Made by a program: the position numbers and the translations under genes. A stretch of DNA of 64,000 nucleotides, from contig CALUHR010000013.1 of NCBI GenBank assembly GCA_944320495.1, forward strand, positions 448,001 to 512,000, in the 5' to 3' direction. Positions within the stretch are counted from its first letter, which is position 1. The number at the start of each line of letters is the position of its first letter. This document shows, in pieces, positions 31,448 through 57,598 of the stretch. Under the pieces are notes generated by a model that searched no databases, was not told the DNA's origin, and saw nothing but the letters and a program-made list of their open reading frames with translations. The stretch comes from Candidatus Methanomethylophilaceae archaeon. GTDB taxonomy: Archaea > Thermoplasmatota > Thermoplasmata > Methanomassiliicoccales > Methanomethylophilaceae.

Positions 31448-32194
31448 ATGACCGACGGCCCACTCACAGACTTCGAGCTGTACTTCACCAAGAACGGACT
31501 GGTGCAGGTGTCGAACGACGTGAGGCGCCGCATCCTCCACGAGCTGGAGACGAAGGACCTGTCCCTCACAGACCTCTCCAAGATCCTCGGCAAGGCGCAG
31601 TCTACCCTTTCGGTACATCTGGACAAGATGGTCGACGAGAGCCTCATCGCCGTACACGACGATCCGGAGGACAGCAGGAGGAAGGTGTACTCCCTCGTGT
31701 CCATCATGCTCGCGTACTCCAAGCCCCCGTCGGACGACGCCATGACCATGGCGATGAAGGTCCTCACGGAGGTCGCGGATGACCCCATCGCGACGCGCAA
31801 CGCCCTGACCAAGTTCCTCTTCCTGGGGTTCGACGGGATGGGTCTTTCGGTGGAGCCCATGGCCACGATCCTGGGGTCCATACACGCTATGGCGCTGGGA
31901 GGGTTCCTCACGGGACCCACCATCGAGGACACGGTCGCCAACGCCAGGGACTACTACAAGAAGATGGGGTTCGGTGACGCCAGTGTGTTCTCCCTGAAAC
32001 CGCTGTCCATCACGATAAAGGACGACCTCTCGTTCTCGGCGGACGCCGCCAAGTCTCTCGGCAACTACGCCATCGGGTTCTTCAGCAAGGTCCTGGAGGA
32101 CGCCACAGGGAAGACCTACTCCGTCACATCGAGCGAGGTCTTCGGTCTCGACGGCAACTACTTCCGCTTCACCATCGAGCCCGTGAGCCAGCGA
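31448..32194 (+). CDS. ArsR-family HTH transcriptional regulator with a V4R-like C-terminal domain
   Basis: RRRILHEL...KAQSTLSVHLDKM...DSRRKVY winged HTH. Ends at CGA 32192-32194 (standard stop at 32857 would run through the whole convergent gene). Confidence 0.82.
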
Positions 32195-32824
32195 TCGCCT
32201 CGACGGTTCGAACGTCAGGAGGGCGCCGTTGCCCAGGGTCTCGCAGGAGACGAGCGTGAGCCTCATGCCTCCGTCGGCCACCCATCCGTCGCCGTCGCAG
32301 GGCGTGGGGGCGTCGCGGCCGCCGATGACGAGGCCTCCGACGAACACGGTGTACCTGTCCACCATGCCTGCTCTGAAGAACGACGATATCGTCTCGCCGC
32401 CGCCCTCCACGAGGACGTTCTCGACCCCCATGTCCGCGAGCTCCTTCATGACCTTCTCCAGGTCGATGCGGTCGGCGCCGGCGCGGATTATCTCCTCGCA
32501 GTCCCACTCGCGGTCGCAGCCCTCCAGGGTGACCATTATTGTCGGTGCCCTCTCGTCCAGGATCTTCGCTTCGTCCGGGGTCCTCCCGTGGGGGTCCAGA
32601 ACGATCCTGATGGGGTTGGTGTCGTAGTCCAGGTCCTTGAGCGTGAGATGCGGGTCGTCAGCGACGACGGTGCCGACGCCCACGAGTATGGCGTCGTATT
32701 TGCGCCTGAGCCCCTTGGCGCGGGCCTTGTCCTCCTCGGAGGAGATCGATACCTGGGTCCTGTCGTCCCCGGCGATCTTGCCGTCGGCGGACATGGCGCA
32801 GTTGACGTGTACGAAAGGTCTCAT
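32195..32824 (-). CDS. arfC: 2,5-diamino-6-ribosylamino-4(3H)-pyrimidinone 5'-phosphate reductase (RibD C-terminal family)
   Basis: AMSADGKIA, DAILVGVGTVVADDPHL and LVEGGGET motifs. Ends at CGA 32197-32195 (standard stop at 31424). Confidence 0.88.
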
Positions 32825-33858
32825 CTCTTCGCCCCCGGCGTGACTGTGAAACGATAGACGTCGTTGGTCCTCTCCACCCCGAACTTCACATCAAGGAAGG
32901 ACTCCAGCGTGTCCATCTGGCTCAGCAGGTGCCTGCTGATCCTGGAGACGTTGAACGAGCTCTCCCCGGTGGCCATGGCCATGTACGGGAGGAGCTGGTC
33001 GGCGGTGTGGACGTCCATGGTCGCACCGCTCTGCATCTCGCTGATGAGGTCCCTAGCGGCGTCCTTGCCGCTCCTCTCGGGCGACTGGCCCCTGGCGGAC
33101 AGGGCGTTGCTGCCGAGCATCCCGTTCTCGTACTCCGCGACGAGCACCAGTCCTGCTCCGCGGGAGTCCCCCTCGGTGCGTTGGACCTCGATGTCCACGT
33201 CGATGTCGGGTTCGAAGGCCTGCCTGCAGCTCTTCACCATGGCCTCGGGTATCCAGTCCGCCAGGCGCTGGCAGAAGCAGATCCCGCGGACCTGGACGAG
33301 CTCCCCGAGGGAGTCCAGCGCCAGCGGGGTTATGTCGCCTATGGGGTCTAGGGTGGCGATGACGCGCCCCCCGCCCTGGGGGTAGAAGCCCCTGTCGATG
33401 ATCTTGACGTCCGCGTTGATGCCCATGCGCCTCATCATAGGGAACAGCAGGGTCGAATAGGAGTCGATGGGCGGGGCCCACATGACGTTGGTCCCCCCGC
33501 TTATGTCGACGGTGAGCCTGCGGGTGTGGTTCCTCGCGGCCAGGAGCATCGCCTGCAGGACCAGGCTGATGCTTCCGGCGGAGCTGATGTTCACGTCGAT
33601 GTCGTACTCCTGCTCGGTCCCGGGGTAGAACTTGAGGTCCCCGGAGCCCATGGTGCACCCCTCCACGGTGGATCCGGCCATCCTGGCGACGGCCTTGACC
33701 GCGGCGACGTGCTGTCTGGAGAGTCCGTTGGTCGGTCTGTTCTCCCTTATGCGGGTGAGGTGTAGCGGTATGCCCGTGACGGTGGACATGGCTACCGACG
33801 TGCGGACCATCTGTCCCCCTCCCTCTCCGCGGGAGCCGTCTATCTCGAGCATATCCAT
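32821..33858 (-). CDS. rtcA: RNA 3'-terminal phosphate cyclase
   Basis: IDGSRGEGGGQMVR, GGTNVMWAP, RGFYPQGGG and DVHTADQLLPY motifs. Confidence 0.95.
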   Translation of the reverse strand: MDMLEIDGSRGEGGGQMVRTSVAMSTVTGIPLHLTRIRENRPTNGLSRQHVAAVKAVARMAGSTVEGCTMGSGDLKFYPGTEQEYDIDVNISSAGSISLVLQAMLLAARNHTRRLTVDISGGTNVMWAPPIDSYSTLLFPMMRRMGINADVKIIDRGFYPQGGGRVIATLDPIGDITPLALDSLGELVQVRGICFCQRLADWIPEAMVKSCRQAFEPDIDVDIEVQRTEGDSRGAGLVLVAEYENGMLGSNALSARGQSPERSGKDAARDLISEMQSGATMDVHTADQLLPYMAMATGESSFNVSRISRHLLSQMDTLESFLDVKFGVERTNDVYRFTVTPGAKR

Positions 33859-33926: not shown

Positions 33927-34001
33927 TGGTGCGATTGCCGGGAATCGAACCCGGGTCAGAGGCTTGGGAAGCCCCCGTCCTAACCGCTAGACTACAATCG
34001 C
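33927..34001 (-). tRNA. tRNA-Gly(CCC)
   Basis: Minus strand GCGATTG...GGGGC-TTCCCAA-GCCTC...GGTTCGATTCC...CAATCGC-ACCA. Confidence 0.95.
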
Positions 34002-34093
34002 GCAGAGGCTCGAATACAGTCTACATATTTAATTGAGGCTGATGGCCCGTCCTGTGTTCTCTTTAAATACCAAATCCATCTATCGGAATCTGC

Positions 34094-34169
34094 GGGCTCG
34101 TGGTCTAGTGGTTATGACGTCGCCCTTACAAGGCGAAGGTCGCCGGTTCAATCCCGGCCGGGCCCACCA
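34094..34169 (+). tRNA. tRNA-Val(TAC)
   Basis: GGGCTCG acceptor stem, TCGCC-CTTACAA-GGCGA anticodon arm, encoded CCA. Confidence 0.95.
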
Positions 34170-34216
34170 CCTCATTCGTCACCAATAAATAGGGCGACCT
34201 GTTGCCCTGTCCTAAC

Positions 34217-34290
34217 GGACTCATGGTCTAGTTGGTTATGACGTCGCCTTCACACGGCGGAGGTCGCCGGTTCGAATCCGGCTGGGTCCA
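34217..34290 (+). tRNA. tRNA-Val(CAC)
   Basis: GGACTCA/TGGGTCC acceptor stem, TCGCC-TTCACAC-GGCGG anticodon arm, TTCGAAT T-loop; CCA not encoded. Confidence 0.93.
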
Positions 34291-35606: not shown

Positions 35607-37007
35607 ATGGCACAGATTTCGGAAGCGAAAATACCCGAGACCCAGAGGACCGAGGAGGGCAGGCTCTTCGAGAAGGAGTTCGACACCGTCCTCGGCGGGG
35701 AGAAGAGGGACTACCCCTGCTACATCGGAGGGCTCAAGATCGGGTCCGGCAACCTGTTCTACCTGTGCAGCCCGGTCGACGAGTCGATCCGCTACGGCTC
35801 ATTCCAGGAGCCCGAGGCTGGCACCATGAGAGCCGCCGTCGCCGAGGCCGGCAAGAAGGTCTCCGAGTGGTCCCGTGTCCCGGCGGAGAAGCGCGCCTCG
35901 TACTTCGTCCCGTATCTGAACGGGCTGAAGGCCAGGAGGATGCACTACGCCGCGCTCGTCTCCGTGGCCTCCGGCATGGTCCGCGAGGACGCGCTGTTTG
36001 AGGTGGACTCGCTCATCTCCGCGCTGGAGAAGCTCATCGCGGACTCCCCCTCCTTCAAGGGGAGGAAGTCCGGGGTCTGGGCCGTGATCACCCAGCACAA
36101 CTCCCCGCTCGCGTCCCCCGTCGCGTATGCGGTCGGGGCGATGATCGCCGGGAACGCGGTCGTCATGAACCCGTCGAACACGTGCCCCATGCCGATATAC
36201 GACTTCTACTCCACCACGGAGCGCAGCGGTCTCCCAGGAGGGGTCCTGAACCTCGTGGTCGACCGCAACGAGTACGAGTCGACCCAGGAGCTGGCCAACG
36301 ACATGTCGCTCCGCGGCGTCGTGGCCTCCGGATCAGGCGACAGGATGGAGGACATGATGTTCCTCCAGATCGACGACGAGCTCCGCTTCGTCAACAACCT
36401 CAAGGGCATGAGCCCGTGCATCGTCTACCGTCCCGGGGACATGAAGGCGGCTGCCAGGATGATCCTGGAGTCCGCGTTCGCCTACAGCGGCCAGAGGATC
36501 CACTCCTGCTCCAAGGTCATCGTCACCATGGACGAGCAGAAGCAGCTGGTGGACGCCCTCGTGGAGAGGATGAAGGACCTCGTCGTGGGGGACCCCGTCC
36601 TCGACACGACCTTCACCGGCCCCGTCATAAGCATGGAGGCGGCCGAGAGGTTCTCCGAGCTCGCCCTGGAGAACGCAGCGTTCACGATATCCAAGGCCCC
36701 CAGGTGCATGGAGCCCAACGCGGCCAACTACGTGTCCCCGTTCATCGTCTCCGGACTGGACGAGGAGAACGAGCTGGACTTCATGGACTCCGGGCTCCCG
36801 ATCCTGGACGTCAAGGTGGTCCCGGACCTGGAGGGCGCCTTCGAGGAGCTCTCCAACACCGAGTGCGGCATGTCCGCGGGGATCTTCTCGAAGAACGCCG
36901 AGGCCATCGCGAGGCTCAAGAGCGACTGCGATGCGCCGGTGAAATACGTAAACGAGAGCACGAGGCGCCTCAGTCCCGTGGTCGGTCTCGAGCTCGACAG
37001 GTTCTGA
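35607..37007 (+). CDS. aldehyde dehydrogenase-fold protein (RocA/P5C-dehydrogenase-like) with degenerate catalytic residues
   Basis: YPCYIGG, MIAGNAVVMNPS, GGVLNLV and SAFAYSGQRIHSCS motifs. Confidence 0.85.
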   Translation: MAQISEAKIPETQRTEEGRLFEKEFDTVLGGEKRDYPCYIGGLKIGSGNLFYLCSPVDESIRYGSFQEPEAGTMRAAVAEAGKKVSEWSRVPAEKRASYFVPYLNGLKARRMHYAALVSVASGMVREDALFEVDSLISALEKLIADSPSFKGRKSGVWAVITQHNSPLASPVAYAVGAMIAGNAVVMNPSNTCPMPIYDFYSTTERSGLPGGVLNLVVDRNEYESTQELANDMSLRGVVASGSGDRMEDMMFLQIDDELRFVNNLKGMSPCIVYRPGDMKAAARMILESAFAYSGQRIHSCSKVIVTMDEQKQLVDALVERMKDLVVGDPVLDTTFTGPVISMEAAERFSELALENAAFTISKAPRCMEPNAANYVSPFIVSGLDEENELDFMDSGLPILDVKVVPDLEGAFEELSNTECGMSAGIFSKNAEAIARLKSDCDAPVKYVNESTRRLSPVVGLELDRF

Positions 37008-37586
37008 TCGGCCGACGCGGACGTTCCTGGCGCGTCCCCTCAGGGACTTCGCCAGGGCGTCCAACCTCTTCCTGTCGTACCCGGGGGCCGGTCTCGCCGG
37101 CATCCGGAGCAGGAACATCCCGTATCCCTCGACGGAATCCGCCGCCTCGAGGACCGTCTCCTCGGTCGTCCTCTCGTACAGGCGGACGATGGCGTCGAAG
37201 GTCCCTCCGTTCTCCTCGGCGATGCGGATGCTCCTGCGCTGGTCTCCGTCGGCGGCCCCGTCCATCAGGAGGCCGATGCCGGTGGCGTATCCCGCGCCGA
37301 TGAGGTCGTCCAGCTCGTCCGGATGCCTTCCGGACGTCTCGATGATGACGGGCAGCCCCCTGGGGCGGACGGTCTTGATGAGTCTGTGGATTCCGGGGAG
37401 CTCCTCAGGGTCCCCGTCGAGGCGGCGGACCACCATGGCGTCCACGATGTCGGTGTCGCGGGCTGTGACGGCGGCCACCGCATCCGGGTCCTCGCCCGGT
37501 CCGTCGGATCCATCGACTATGAGGACGCTCACCTGTCTGCCGGGCCATGCGACCATGTCGGTCCTGGAGAACGATGCTATGCGCAT
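37008..37586 (-). CDS. NrdG/PflA activase-like protein lacking the CxxxCxxC motif
   Basis: MRIASFSRTDMVAWPG N-terminus and IETSG motif resemble anaerobic RNR activases, but the protein has no cluster Cys. Ends at CGA 37010-37008, abutting the convergent TGA (standard stop at 36333). Confidence 0.6.
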
Positions 37587-47543: not shown

Positions 47544-48364
47544 GAGCGGAGTTCGAGGTGCCGGACATACCGGCGATCAGGTCCGAGGGCCTGACGCCGG
47601 TGGACATGCACTACCACACCAGCTGCTCGGACTCGGACACGGACCCCGTCGCCGCCCTCCGCCTGGCCGAGCGCATGGGCGTGGGGTTCGCGGTCACCGA
47701 CCACAACCTGATCCAGTCGGTGCTGAGGCTGAAGGAGGTACGCTCCTCCGTCCCCGTCGTCCCGGGGATGGAGGTCAGCACCACCGACGGCCCGCACATA
47801 CTGGTCTACTTCCCCACCTCCAGGTCCCTGGAGAGGTTCTGGTACACGCGCATCCGCCCCCGCATCCAGGAGAACCCGTGGCTGGCCCTCAGGGACTGCA
47901 CCACCGAGAGGCTCCTGGACATGTGCGAGATGGAGGACTGCGTCGTCTCCGCCGCCCACCCCTCGGGATACTTCAACACCAACAAGGGCGTCGAGATCTG
48001 CATCCGCAAGGGCATCCTCATGCCGTCGGTGGCAAGGCGTCTCGACGCATACGAGGTGATCTCCGGGGGAATGACCCGCGAGTCCAACGAGAACTCCATA
48101 GCCGCCGCCAAGGAGTACGGGCTGGGGTTCACAGGGGGCACCGACTCCCACGTCCTCAACGGCCTCGGAGGCGTCGTCACCGTGTGCCAGTCGTCCACCG
48201 TGGAGGGGATCCTGGAGGACGTGAGGCACCATCGGGTGGACGTGATCGGACAGGAGAAGAACATCCGCGAGAAGGTCGTCACCGGCTCCGCCTCCGCCAT
48301 GAAGTTCGCCCTCCACGTGCCCTCGACCGTATCGGTGAAGGCTCGCGGGATGGTCCGGAGACGA
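47540..48364 (+). CDS. PHP-domain phosphoesterase
   Basis: DMHYHTSCSD, VTDHN, GMEV, AHP and GGTDSH motifs. Ends at CGA 48362-48364, abutting the convergent TGA (standard stop at 49870). Confidence 0.85.
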
Positions 48365-50170
48365 TCACTGGTCGTCTTCCTGCTCCTGCTCCGCCATCTC
48401 GGCCCTTGTCTGGCGGCGCTTCCTCACGTAAAGGACGAGTATCGCCAGCGCGGCCACCGCTATGATCGCCGCATAGTACCACAGCTCCACCTCGACGGCG
48501 TTGGGGACGATCAGGATTATCAGGAAGTCGATCAGCACGATCAGGAGGTACGTGTTGATGTCCAGGAAGTTCAGGAACCTCTCGTATATGGCGACGGGGT
48601 TCGAGTCGCGCCCCTCCCTGTTGGCGATGCGCTTGGCCCCGCCGATGATGATCTCGTCCAGGAACTTCACGTTGTTGATCATGTAGTACGTGGGGATCGT
48701 CAGGAACAGGAAGTTCATGCCGAGGATCATCAGGACCCATCCGGTCTGATTCCATCCGAAGGACTCCAGCAGCCATTCGCTCAGCGGAGGCGTGAGGAAG
48801 TAGAAGGCGATCTCTATCGCCGCGATGACCAGGATGTTGATGTACGCATGGGTCATGCTGCGGTAGACGGCCTTCTGGGACTTCTTCGAGGACGCGGAGA
48901 GGCGGTCGTAGGTCCTGGACCTGGCGTCGTTGAGCGAGCAGCATGCCGCGTAGATGGGGCGGGGGCACTTGGACACGACCCCGTCCCAGATGCTCCCCGC
49001 ATAGCGCGACACGATCGGGAGGGTTATCATCGAGAGCAGGGCCGCGCCGATGACCGAGGTGTAGAACCCGTCGTCTATGACCCCGTCAGCCAGCGCCTCG
49101 GCGGCGATGATGAACGCGAACTCCCCCATGGCGCAGAGGTTGATCGCCGAAAGGAACCCGTTCCTGCAGGTCTCGTTCCCGATCCAGTACGCCAGGAACC
49201 CGTTGCAGGTCATCAGGACGAAGTAGATGACGAAGAAGATCAGGATGGTGCCGATGTTGTCCACCAGGATGGACGCTGGATAGACCTCCGCACCTATGCT
49301 GATGAAGAACACGGCCATGAACAGGTCCCTCATGGGGCCGATCTTGCTGTTCACGTCCTTGGCCTTCCTGCTGCTGGCCACCATCATGCCCATCAGGAAC
49401 GCTCCGATGGCCATGGACAGGCCGGCGTATGTGGCCAGCAGGGCCATGAGGAACGCCAGTCCGACGGATGCGACCGTGAGGATCTCGTCGGACACGTTGT
49501 CGGAGATCCAGTTGATGATCCTCGGCACGACCCTCAGGCCCACGACGATGCTGATGACCATGAACACGAGGATCTTGACGATCAGGACGATGATCTCGTT
49601 GATGTCCATCCCGCCCATCTCCCCGGCGGAGTAGTTCGCCATCAGCGGCGTGATCATGGAAAGGATGATGACCTGGCCGATGTCCTCCATGATGGCGACG
49701 AGGATGAGCATGTCCACGTGGTCGCGGTCGAGCTTGTTCTGCGTCTTCAGCACGGCGAGCAGCACGGCGGACGAGGATCCGGAGATTATGGCGCCCAGCA
49801 CGAGGGACTGGGTCATGTCGTAGCCGAGGAGCGTCCCGGCCACGAATCCCCCTGTGAGCATGAGGGGTAGCAGGATGACCACCACGAGGATGGCGAAGGA
49901 CCCCTGCTTGCGGATCTTCTTGATGTTGATCTCCAGCCCTATGCAGAACATCAGCAGGACCAGTCCGAAGTCCTTCAGGAAGGAGATGATCTCCTCTTCG
50001 GCGAGGATCGTCCCCTTGTCCTGGAAGAGGAACATGACGTTGACCAGGACGATGCCCGCGATGATGTATCCGATGAGCGGGGGCAGCTTGAACTTGTTGA
50101 AGACGATGGAACAGACCGCGGCGAGCAGCGAGAACAGCGCCAGCGCCGTCAGCATCACCGTCTCTTCCAT
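48365..50170 (-). CDS. cation:proton antiporter (CPA2/KefB-like)
   Basis: PPLIGYIIAG, LLMFCIGLE, SSSAV, MEDIG and GEFAFII motifs. Confidence 0.9.
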   Translation of the reverse strand: MEETVMLTALALFSLLAAVCSIVFNKFKLPPLIGYIIAGIVLVNVMFLFQDKGTILAEEEIISFLKDFGLVLLMFCIGLEINIKKIRKQGSFAILVVVILLPLMLTGGFVAGTLLGYDMTQSLVLGAIISGSSSAVLLAVLKTQNKLDRDHVDMLILVAIMEDIGQVIILSMITPLMANYSAGEMGGMDINEIIVLIVKILVFMVISIVVGLRVVPRIINWISDNVSDEILTVASVGLAFLMALLATYAGLSMAIGAFLMGMMVASSRKAKDVNSKIGPMRDLFMAVFFISIGAEVYPASILVDNIGTILIFFVIYFVLMTCNGFLAYWIGNETCRNGFLSAINLCAMGEFAFIIAAEALADGVIDDGFYTSVIGAALLSMITLPIVSRYAGSIWDGVVSKCPRPIYAACCSLNDARSRTYDRLSASSKKSQKAVYRSMTHAYINILVIAAIEIAFYFLTPPLSEWLLESFGWNQTGWVLMILGMNFLFLTIPTYYMINNVKFLDEIIIGGAKRIANREGRDSNPVAIYERFLNFLDINTYLLIVLIDFLIILIVPNAVEVELWYYAAIIAVAALAILVLYVRKRRQTRAEMAEQEQEDDQ

Positions 50171-56302: not shown

Positions 56303-56938
56303 ATGGACGAGGCGACCTTCGACCGCGCCAAGGCATTCATCCGCGACCTCTTCGAGGGCGACAGCGGCGGTCACGACTACTGGCATTCGATTCGCGTCCA
56401 CGACCTCGCCGTCTCCATCTGCGGCAGGGAGGGAGGCGACATGGACGTCGTCCGTCTGGCGGCGCTCCTGCACGATGCGGACGACCGCAAGCTCTTCGGA
56501 CAGGGGAGCCGCAACGCCAGGGGATTCATGGACTCCGAGGGCATACCCTCAGACGTCCAGGACGAGGTCGTGGAGATCATATCGAAGATATCGTTCAAGG
56601 GAGCCGACACCGAGGTGCCCGCATCGCTGGAGGGGAGGATAGTCCAGGACGCCGACAGGCTGGACGCCATAGGTGCCGTCGGCATAGCCAGGGCCTTCGC
56701 CTACGGCGGGAGCAGGGGCCGTCCGATGCACGATCCGGAGGTCCCGCCGTGCGAGGGCATGGGCGAGGCCGCCTACTTCGCCAATCGCGGGACGACGGTC
56801 AACCACTTCCACGAGAAGCTGCTCCTGCTGAAGGACATGATGAACACCCCGACCGCCCGCGCCATGGCGGAGTCCCGCCACCGCTACATGGAGGGCTTCC
56901 TGGAGGAGTTCCTGGACGAGTGGGAGGGCCGCAGGCGA
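56303..56938 (+). CDS. HD-domain protein
   Basis: GHDYWH, LLHDADD, VQDADRLDAIGAVGIAR and HFHEKLL motifs. Ends at CGA 56936-56938 (standard stop at 57235). Confidence 0.9.
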
Positions 56939-57598
56939 TCGCAGGAGCTCGAACCGGTTCTTGGAGAACTTCAGGACGCCGTCGGCCTGCATCCTTCCGA
57001 GCTCGGCCGACAGGGCGCTCCTGTCCACGCCCAGGTGGTCGGCCATCTGCTGCCTGTTCAGCGGTATGGAGAACTCGTTGCTCCCCGCGATCCTGGCCTG
57101 GTCGGACAGATAGGCGCACACCTTCTCGCGGATGCTCCGCTTCGACATCTGCCCCAGCCTCCTGTCGCGCTCCACGGTGCTGCGGGCGAGGGCCTGGACC
57201 AGATTTCTGACGACTCTCGAATGGAACTGGCATGATGACGGGCAGGTCGTCGTCACCCTGGAGATCTCGAAGAACATGATCTCGGACCGATCGCTGGTGA
57301 CGAAGCTCGTGTCCGCCCGCTCGCCCATCGAGCACGCGTACTCTGCGAAGATCACATCGCCCGGTCCGTGAGAGGAGACCAGGGTCCTGTTCCCCCACCA
57401 ATCCTGTTTTATGACGTCGACGCGGCCGTCGAGGACGACACCCAGGCAGTCGACGGGGTCCCCGCTGCGAAGCACGAACTCCCCCTTGGGATACTTCTCC
57501 CTGCGGGCGTTCAGGCATTCGCACATCGCTGTAATCTCATCATCAGACGTCCCCAGGAAGATCCCGGTGTTCCTGAGGATGGGGATTGGGCTTCTCAT
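56939..57598 (-). CDS. Crp/Fnr family transcriptional regulator (HcpR-like)
   Basis: cNMP-binding beta-roll and HTH (IPLNRQQMADHLGVDRSALSAELGRM). Ends at CGA 56941-56939 (standard stop at 56549). Confidence 0.9.

Follow-up and report, generated by a model that had tools for sequence, protein, structure and literature searches.

Conversion of a sense codon into a stop signal is, as far as our literature search goes, established only in organelles, where AGA and AGG (vertebrate mitochondria; NCBI translation table 2), UCA (Scenedesmus; table 22) and UUA (Thraustochytrium; table 23) have become stops; cases from green-algal organelles have also been described (PMC6821328; PMC12574857). Here, we analyse a window of 64,000 nucleotides (the whole stretch under study, G000:C13:448001-512000) from the genome of a Candidatus Methanomethylophilaceae archaeon (G000; 1.77 Mb, 61.6% G+C, 14 contigs), in which two convergent genes, one for an MsvR-like transcription regulator and the other, arfC, for the archaeal 2,5-diamino-6-ribosylamino-4(3H)-pyrimidinone 5'-phosphate reductase, meet in the hexamer CGATCG. 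We put at about 80% the probability that both genes truly end at CGA, which would act as a stop codon beside TGA, TAA and the rare TAG, by way of a contest at the ribosome. As in the organellar codes, an amino-acid codon is gone from gene interiors and marks gene ends. However, whereas organellar genomes are tiny and hold a dozen or so genes, the present one belongs to a free-living archaeon of the gut and carries ~1,500 genes; furthermore, a cognate tRNA, apparently weakened, persists, and a single codon of this kind remains in the release-factor gene.

In our literature search, no account of CGA serving as a stop in Methanomethylophilaceae or Methanoprimaticola came up. In two archaeal assemblies from hydrothermal vents, CGA is absent from recognizable domains and its possible use as a stop has been raised, in a preprint that states its method to be unable to infer stops, contains no analysis of gene ends and does not mention Methanomethylophilaceae (bioRxiv 10.64898/2026.04.02.715157). 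The vent archaea differ from G000 in that they belong to another lineage, have ~50% G+C and CGG reassigned to Trp, and their tRNA-UCG was not found (bioRxiv 10.64898/2026.04.02.715157). In yeast, eRF1/eRF3 can misread CGA (PMC7379694); as there, an eRF1/aRF1-family factor would act here on a poorly decoded CGA, one transition away from UGA. Unlike the yeast case, which is a side reaction at artificial CGA repeats, termination at CGA would be the normal end of about a quarter of the genes in G000.

Two convergent genes meeting in one hexamer

An earlier note on this DNA had claimed that two convergent genes end back-to-back in a single CGATCG palindrome, and direct reading of the sequence bears this out. 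On the + strand, the frame that opens with ATG at 31448 runs to ...FTIEPVSQ and then meets an in-frame CGA at 32192-32194; on the - strand, the frame from the ATG at 32824 runs to ...LLTFEPSR and meets an in-frame CGA at 32197-32195 (TCG on the + strand). The two CGAs adjoin with 0 bases between them, which produces CGATCG at 32192-32197, the core of a wider 8-base palindrome, GCGATCGC, at 32191-32198. Delimited in this manner, the regulator gene occupies 31448..32191 on the + strand (248 codons) and arfC 32198..32824 on the - strand (209 codons), and neither contains an in-frame CGA anywhere but at its end. The same note stated that, with the standard code, each frame traverses the entire opposite gene; this also holds, as table 11 yields open reading frames (ORFs) of 469 amino acids (31448-32857, +) and 466 amino acids (32824-31424, -), with 220 further codons past the CGA in the + frame and 256 in the - frame. 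The hexamer per se is not rare (26 occurrences in the window versus 21.7 expected), and it is its placement that goes beyond chance.

The G+C content at the first, second and third codon positions (GC1/GC2/GC3) flips exactly at the CGAs, from 0.55/0.39/0.90 before to 0.88/0.44/0.64 after in the + frame, and from 0.63/0.44/0.90 to 0.89/0.40/0.54 in the - frame. The pattern past the CGAs is the signature of a gene read backwards.

We compared the junction across 19 same-genus genomes with conserved synteny, in which the regulator gene and arfC are convergent, and 21 further public records. The earlier note had proposed a check of whether orthologue stops map to these codons, and they do: the stops of both genes lie at the CGA positions or a few codons from them, 0-4 codons away. 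At the arfC end, the very codon that is CGA in G000 is TGA in the closest relative, G018 (97% identical); elsewhere in the genus the stop is TGA or TAA, 0-3 codons off, and six species have CGA. The regulator gene ends in most species with TGA or TAA 0-4 residues past a conserved ...EP motif, and with CGA at the same place in G018, G003, G010 and G001. The junction as a whole reads CGATCG in G000, G003, G010, G001 and UBA480 (from an unrelated study), TGATCG in G018, and TGATCA in G004, G011, G101 (ERR321628-bin.21) and SRP315200_co1_81, with T/C swaps between relatives at both ends of the hexamer. CGATCG would be the C-for-T version of an ancestral TGATCA-type junction, both T's having become C. 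Three contigs that bear the locus, CAVABN01, CAVJLK01 and CAVHMZ01, belong to public bins that carry the names Bifidobacteriaceae bacterium, Ruminococcus sp. CAG:579 and Prevotella hominis, respectively, which are probably mislabelled or mixed.

Among 116 regulator homologues in the databases, most are 243-262 amino acids long, and those of 300-432 amino acids all begin their extra tail with Arg exactly at the CGA point and continue antisense to arfC. Judging from the sequences, these long forms are read-through misannotations of the 248-residue regulator. Under the standard code, with CGA specifying Arg, the two frames would instead encode real proteins of 469 and 466 residues that fully overlap on opposite strands. 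The frames are indeed open and the databases do hold long forms (P0001, P0003, P0010, P0017), but at 62% G+C and 90% GC3, antisense frames that stay open over long distances are to be expected. The tails, for their part, are antisense-like in composition, yield no Pfam match, do not occur in relatives whose stop at that spot is TGA or TAA, and show lower conservation than the gene on the opposite strand of the same DNA. Between G000 and G018 (95% nucleotide identity), the protein identity for ArfC is 0.97 versus 0.86 for the + read-through frame across it, and that for the regulator is 0.99 versus 0.85 for the opposite-strand read-through frame; in more distant genome pairs, the tails are again less conserved than the real frames. 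Conserved C-terminal extensions, which the earlier note had named as the observation that would contradict termination at CGA, were looked for in the orthologues and were not found. Real overlapping proteins are therefore, in our estimate, highly improbable.

CGA at gene ends across the genome

To compare CGA with the other codons of the genome, each codon preceded by 50 coding-like codons was considered, and the next 50 codons were scored as coding or non-coding. The resulting ratio of non-coding to coding was 534:5 for CGA, 1166:42 for TGA and 125:6 for TAA, compared to ~2:1 to 1:2.5 for sense codons, with rarely used ones such as TTA reaching 3:1. In this test, CGA matches TGA and differs from every sense codon. 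In-frame CGAs that connect coding to coding sequence number 5 in 1.77 Mb, versus ~1,070 expected.

When CGA is counted as a stop, our own simple gene model, based on codon usage, predicts 1,498 genes that cover 83% of the genome, of which 1072 end with TGA, 359 with CGA, 49 with TAA and 18 with TAG. The scarcity of TAG ends is as expected for the pyrrolysine-using Methanomassiliicoccales lineage; ARAGORN reported no Pyl, Trp or Tyr tRNA in the genome, indicating that tRNA detection is incomplete. In the window, the same treatment gives 61 genes (36 ending with TGA, 23 with CGA and two with TAA), and many long overlapping table-11 ORFs vanish. The sequence past CGA ends is similar to that past TGA ends, with the next standard stop at a median of 26 and 28 codons, respectively. 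T comes next after 55% of CGA stops versus 29% of TGA stops, and A is avoided after CGA; accordingly, the CGA share of stops is 0.50 before TG, 0.39 before TC and 0.01 before AA. The regulator CGA is followed by T, C and G, and both CGAs of the hexamer sit in the T, C context that is favoured genome-wide. Overall, CGA is almost unused in frame inside genes, sits where orthologues have a standard stop and is followed by sequence that is not selected as protein. It does, however, have a decoding tRNA.

The loss of CGA is confined to one frame. Inside the model genes, CGA trinucleotides in frames 1, 2 and 3 number ~0, 8,820 and 34,087, respectively, versus 1,070, 11,353 and 27,841 expected. Given that CGA is missing in frame only, no frame-blind process, be it sequencing error, base modification or indiscriminate RNA editing, fits these counts; only a frame-aware reader, that is, the ribosome, does. 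A sequencing or assembly artefact, with TGATCA as the true bases, would account for a difference that consists of T-to-C changes only, but not for a frame-specific effect, nor for the recurrence of CGATCG at this junction in assemblies that stem from unrelated studies (UBA480; G001, G003, G010). Moreover, the long read-through forms are drawn from several sources (ENA, Logan and NCBI) and have up to 37 member sequences, and a comparison of 13 CGA ends of G000 with G018 showed CGA there too in 11. An artefact is hardly credible at all.

C-to-U editing of the mRNA, through which the ribosome would see an ordinary UGA in place of CGA, as occurs at some CGA codons of plant organelles, would explain both the one-for-one CGA/TGA swaps between relatives and the retention by aRF1, the single release factor, of the NIKS and YxCxxxF motifs. 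However, a deaminase is blind to frame, whereas CGA is depleted in frame 1 only, and each of the 8,820 frame-2 sites (xCG Axx) would change an amino acid if edited. Nor does editing explain why tRNA-Arg(UCG) is detuned, why the state of this tRNA correlates with CGA use and why a CGA is conserved in the aRF1 gene, all of which is described below; we regard editing as distinctly unlikely.

A further observation, beyond those of the earlier note, is that exact back-to-back stops are a recurrent layout and strongly biased to CGA. In the gene model, 26 of the 225 convergent pairs genome-wide have zero gap, versus 0-5 pairs for each neighbouring gap size, and their hexamers are CGATCG (12), CGATCA (8), TGATCG (5) and TGATCA (1). 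Besides the junction at 32192-32197, three of these lie in the window, namely, TGATCG at 37005-37010, CGATCA at 48362-48367 and CGATCG at 56936-56941. CGA accounts for 37 of the 52 stops at zero-gap junctions, compared to 24% overall and to 57 of 184 among the other stops that are followed by TC (Fisher p = 3e-7). The zero gap is plausibly the limit of spacer shrinkage. Restriction or methylation was considered as a cause of the hexamer bias and dropped, as TGATCA is not depleted in the genome (614 versus 692 CGATCG); in the window as a whole, TGATCA (24 versus 7 expected) and GATC (445 versus 213) are over-represented relative to base composition.

CGA ends, tRNA-Arg(UCG) and aRF1 in the genus

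In the relatives, we defined gene ends by homology to G000 proteins, because a composition-only classifier proved too noisy, with many spurious TAG ends. CGA ends are not genus-wide. Next to G000 (24%), heavy users are G010 (14/47), G018 (11/67), G001 (9/53), G003 (5/13), G009 (3/14) and G013 (5/33), whereas several well-assembled species lack them: G085 (0/36, including seven ends that are CGA in G000), G015 (0/34), G008 (LGM-RCC1; 0/30), G101 (0/36), G055 (0/36), G065 (0/29), G043 (0/14), G104 (0/15) and G079 (0/11) have none and G004 has one in 30; the counts are small for the fragmentary relatives. Sense CGA is missing in all these species, users and non-users alike. On the regulator/ArfC/RtcA tree, the users fall into two clades, (G013, G010, G000/G018, G009) and (G001, G003, G012).

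In the other genera of the family, for each of which two 20-kb samples were inspected, no accumulation of CGA-only ends was found. In these samples, sense CGA is rare or absent in six genera (g10, g13, g14, g16, g20, g21) and CGA is used for Arg in seven (g11, g12, g17, g18, g19, g22, g23). In G077 (g16), CGA comes after a gene whose G000 orthologue ends with TAA, and the next 300 codons are free of standard stops, which may reflect either a fused gene or termination at CGA beyond the genus.

CGA is not an orphan codon: ARAGORN detects tRNA-Arg(UCG) at G000:C13:413317-413390, outside the window. In the anticodon stem of this tRNA, four good pairs are followed at the bottom by an A31·A39 mismatch, and the D-loop is 3 nt shorter than that of the outgroup tRNAs. 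A 31·39 mismatch is present in every in-genus copy that was recovered, whereas C31 and G39 pair normally in six outgroup genomes, which represent other families of the order. The four upper pairs of the stem covary within the genus (TCAGA/ACTGA, CTAGA/ACTAG, TTGGA/ACCAA, TCGGC/ACCGA). Searches with three patterns, which could miss intron-bearing or divergent copies, did not find this tRNA in G005, G007, G008, G015, G104 and G079; four candidate sites proved not to be tRNAs.

The kind of mismatch parallels the use of CGA at gene ends, which are common only where the tRNA carries A31·A39 or U31·C39. CGA terminates 48 of 250 genes in species with A31·A39 or U31·C39 versus four of 217 in those with C31·A39 (Fisher p = 2e-10, a value inflated, like the other cross-species statistics, by the relatedness of the genomes). 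By species, the share is 15-38% in six of the seven sampled A·A/U·C species (19% pooled) and ~2% with C31·A39. Loss of the 31-39 pair has been tied to code changes elsewhere: a bacterial survey deals with tRNAs whose 4-base-pair anticodon stems alter stop-codon decoding (PMC13092985). Like the change in tRNA-Trp(CCA) of Blastocrithidia and ciliates, the present one combines loss of this pair with release-factor substitutions. However, the short stem of tRNA-Trp(CCA) serves a stop-to-sense change, whereas here the affected tRNA is that of the codon becoming a stop, and the lesion would weaken decoding rather than extend it.

The single aRF1 gene of G000 (G000:C2; L021:1084-2346, - strand) contains one in-frame CGA, at Arg78, in the conserved ...RLK... 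that follows NIKS. The CGA at this position (GCT/TCT CGA CTN) is shared by 23 of the 24 in-genus aRF1 genes, although neighbouring synonymous sites vary. The exception, G005, has Lys78 and carries its sole in-frame CGA at the conserved Arg25, as if the single CGA had moved; this assembly is 8% contaminated and contains two aRF1 fragments. Outgroups have CGC, CGT, CGG, AGG or AGA at position 78 and one to four CGAs elsewhere in the gene. At the protein level, 28 positions differ between in-genus aRF1 and all 12 outgroups, four of which flank NIKS (Q53, A56, T63, M65). In addition, two lineages of CGA users have changes of their own in release-factor recognition motifs, G000/G018 with G28S in the GTx loop and G001/G012 with NIRS in place of NIKS.

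Bacterial prfB, which encodes RF2, is autoregulated by an in-frame UGA that can be passed only by a +1 frameshift. The aRF1 genes resemble prfB in holding, in frame and conserved in 23 of 24 cases, a codon of the kind that their product would read, such that factor abundance could control its own synthesis. Unlike in prfB, plain read-through by tRNA-Arg(UCG) would restore Arg78.

How the contest at the ribosome would proceed can be outlined as follows, although each step that involves the action of aRF1, weakness of the tRNA or feedback is our inference. The one release factor present, aRF1, would accept CGA as well as UGA, and tRNA-Arg(UCG) would be crippled by the break in the lowest pair of its anticodon stem (A31·A39 in G000). 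The tRNA is probably retained because of the conserved CGA at the essential Arg78 of the aRF1 gene itself, a codon that would provide feedback control of the release-factor level. With the milder C·A mismatch, CGA would be bad both as sense and as stop and would be avoided everywhere but in the aRF1 sensor. Where the mismatch is A·A or U·C, the factor would win and CGA would be tolerated as a stop, with TGA drifting to CGA under GC pressure (GC3 ~90%). Termination at CGA seems to work best when T comes next, as on both strands of the junction. The genus might then present a code change caught in stages, with sense CGA lost, the Arg78 sensor nearly universal and the 31-39 pair lost in every tRNA-Arg(UCG) recovered, but with CGA usable as a stop only after a second hit (C31·A39 to A·A or U·C), in at least two independent lineages including G000, and with TGA-to-CGA drift fastest at tight junctions. 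We offer this scheme tentatively, at slightly less than even odds.

CGA could also be an unreadable, hungry codon at which ribosomes stall and are then rescued, drop off or slip into another frame and soon reach a stop, without recognition of CGA by a release factor. The weakened tRNA fits this proposal, as does the avoidance of CGA both inside genes and at gene ends in the C31·A39 species, which is what would be expected of a merely bad codon. However, stalling could hardly be counted on to release the products of a quarter of the genes, which include many conserved housekeeping ones, and the preference for T after CGA resembles the context effects of release factors. To our knowledge, archaea have no hydrolytic rescue factor besides aRF1. 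Frameshifting in place of termination was rejected for the regulator gene, whose +1 frame lacks a stop for 143 codons and whose -1 frame lacks one for 21. Stalling alone thus appears unlikely.

Weighing the evidence and surroundings of the junction

That CGA terminates translation, as the earlier note had proposed, is supported by the orthologue stops, the composition flip and the genome-wide pattern of CGA, all of them drawn from sequence comparison. Several observations weigh against this reading. The cognate tRNA exists, such that CGA is no clean stop and the codon is probably contested rather than cleanly reassigned. Some read-through must occur, because a few in-frame CGAs besides that of aRF1 lie between coding-looking stretches (G000:C13:194145, -; G000:C8:98215, -; G000:C14:41696, -; G000:C1:84558, +), none of them followed by T; at the hexamer studied here, read-through would add 220 and 256 residues. 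The CGA users G010 and G013 lack changes in the known recognition motifs of aRF1 (the aRF1 of G009 and G003 was not recovered). Species without CGA ends keep the Arg78 CGA too, and that codon alone is therefore no proof that aRF1 reads CGA. Finally, the link between tRNA state and CGA use covers only two or three independent lineages. The CGA at G000:C13:194145 looks like the junction of a sugar-isomerase-like and a HAD-phosphatase-like part.

If termination at CGA is real, sense-to-stop change would extend to cellular genomes through a free-living archaeon that ends a quarter of its genes at this codon. The genus would further provide a natural series of intermediates, from codon loss through tRNA decay and release-factor capture to feedback via the release-factor gene, with the 'unassigned' and 'reassigned' states kept side by side in living relatives. 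The idea would be testable in a culture-derived strain, probably Ca. Methanoprimaticola sp. MG2 (G013). In practical terms, standard annotation would fuse or over-extend hundreds of genes in these gut methanogens, and the wrong proteins would spread into databases and into metabolic models of methane-producing gut archaea.

Both genes at the junction belong to recognizable families. The regulator contains a winged helix of the ArsR type, confirmed by Pfam (HTH_5 and HTH_20 at residues 22-69, HTH_5 itself at 25-67), and a V4R-type C-terminal domain that is annotated in homologues only. The entire NCBIfam MsvR profile (NF053755; positions 1-236 of 236) aligns with residues 12-243 at 118 bits, below the 220-bit equivalog cut-off. 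The name 'ArsR-like' given in the earlier note is correct for the winged helix, whereas 'MsvR-like', which covers the winged helix together with V4R, describes the protein better. ArfC matches Pfam RibD_C (PF01872; E = 1.9e-50, 171.9 bits against a cut-off of 24.1) over profile positions 1-196 of 197 and residues 3-202. TIGR01508 covers residues 3-205 with positions 1-208 of 210 at 183.8 bits, just under its cut-off of 186.45, and TIGR00227 scores 187.7 bits, above its cut-off of 150.15. The family profiles of both genes stop 4-7 residues short of the CGAs (five for MsvR and four for TIGR01508).

In the regulator frame, a second in-frame CGA occurs three codons past the first, at 32201..32203 (+), a possible back-up stop that may be a coincidence. 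Upstream of arfC, the TGA stop of rtcA overlaps the arfC start as ATGA at 32821..32824 on the - strand; because rtcA ends with TGA within the arfC operon, TGA is still a stop there. A search of Rfam found no known RNA element at the junction with E up to 1, the only matches being three tRNAs at 33930-34290. These form a cluster just upstream of the rtcA-arfC operon, with Gly-CCC on the - strand and Val-UAC and Val-CAC on the + strand.

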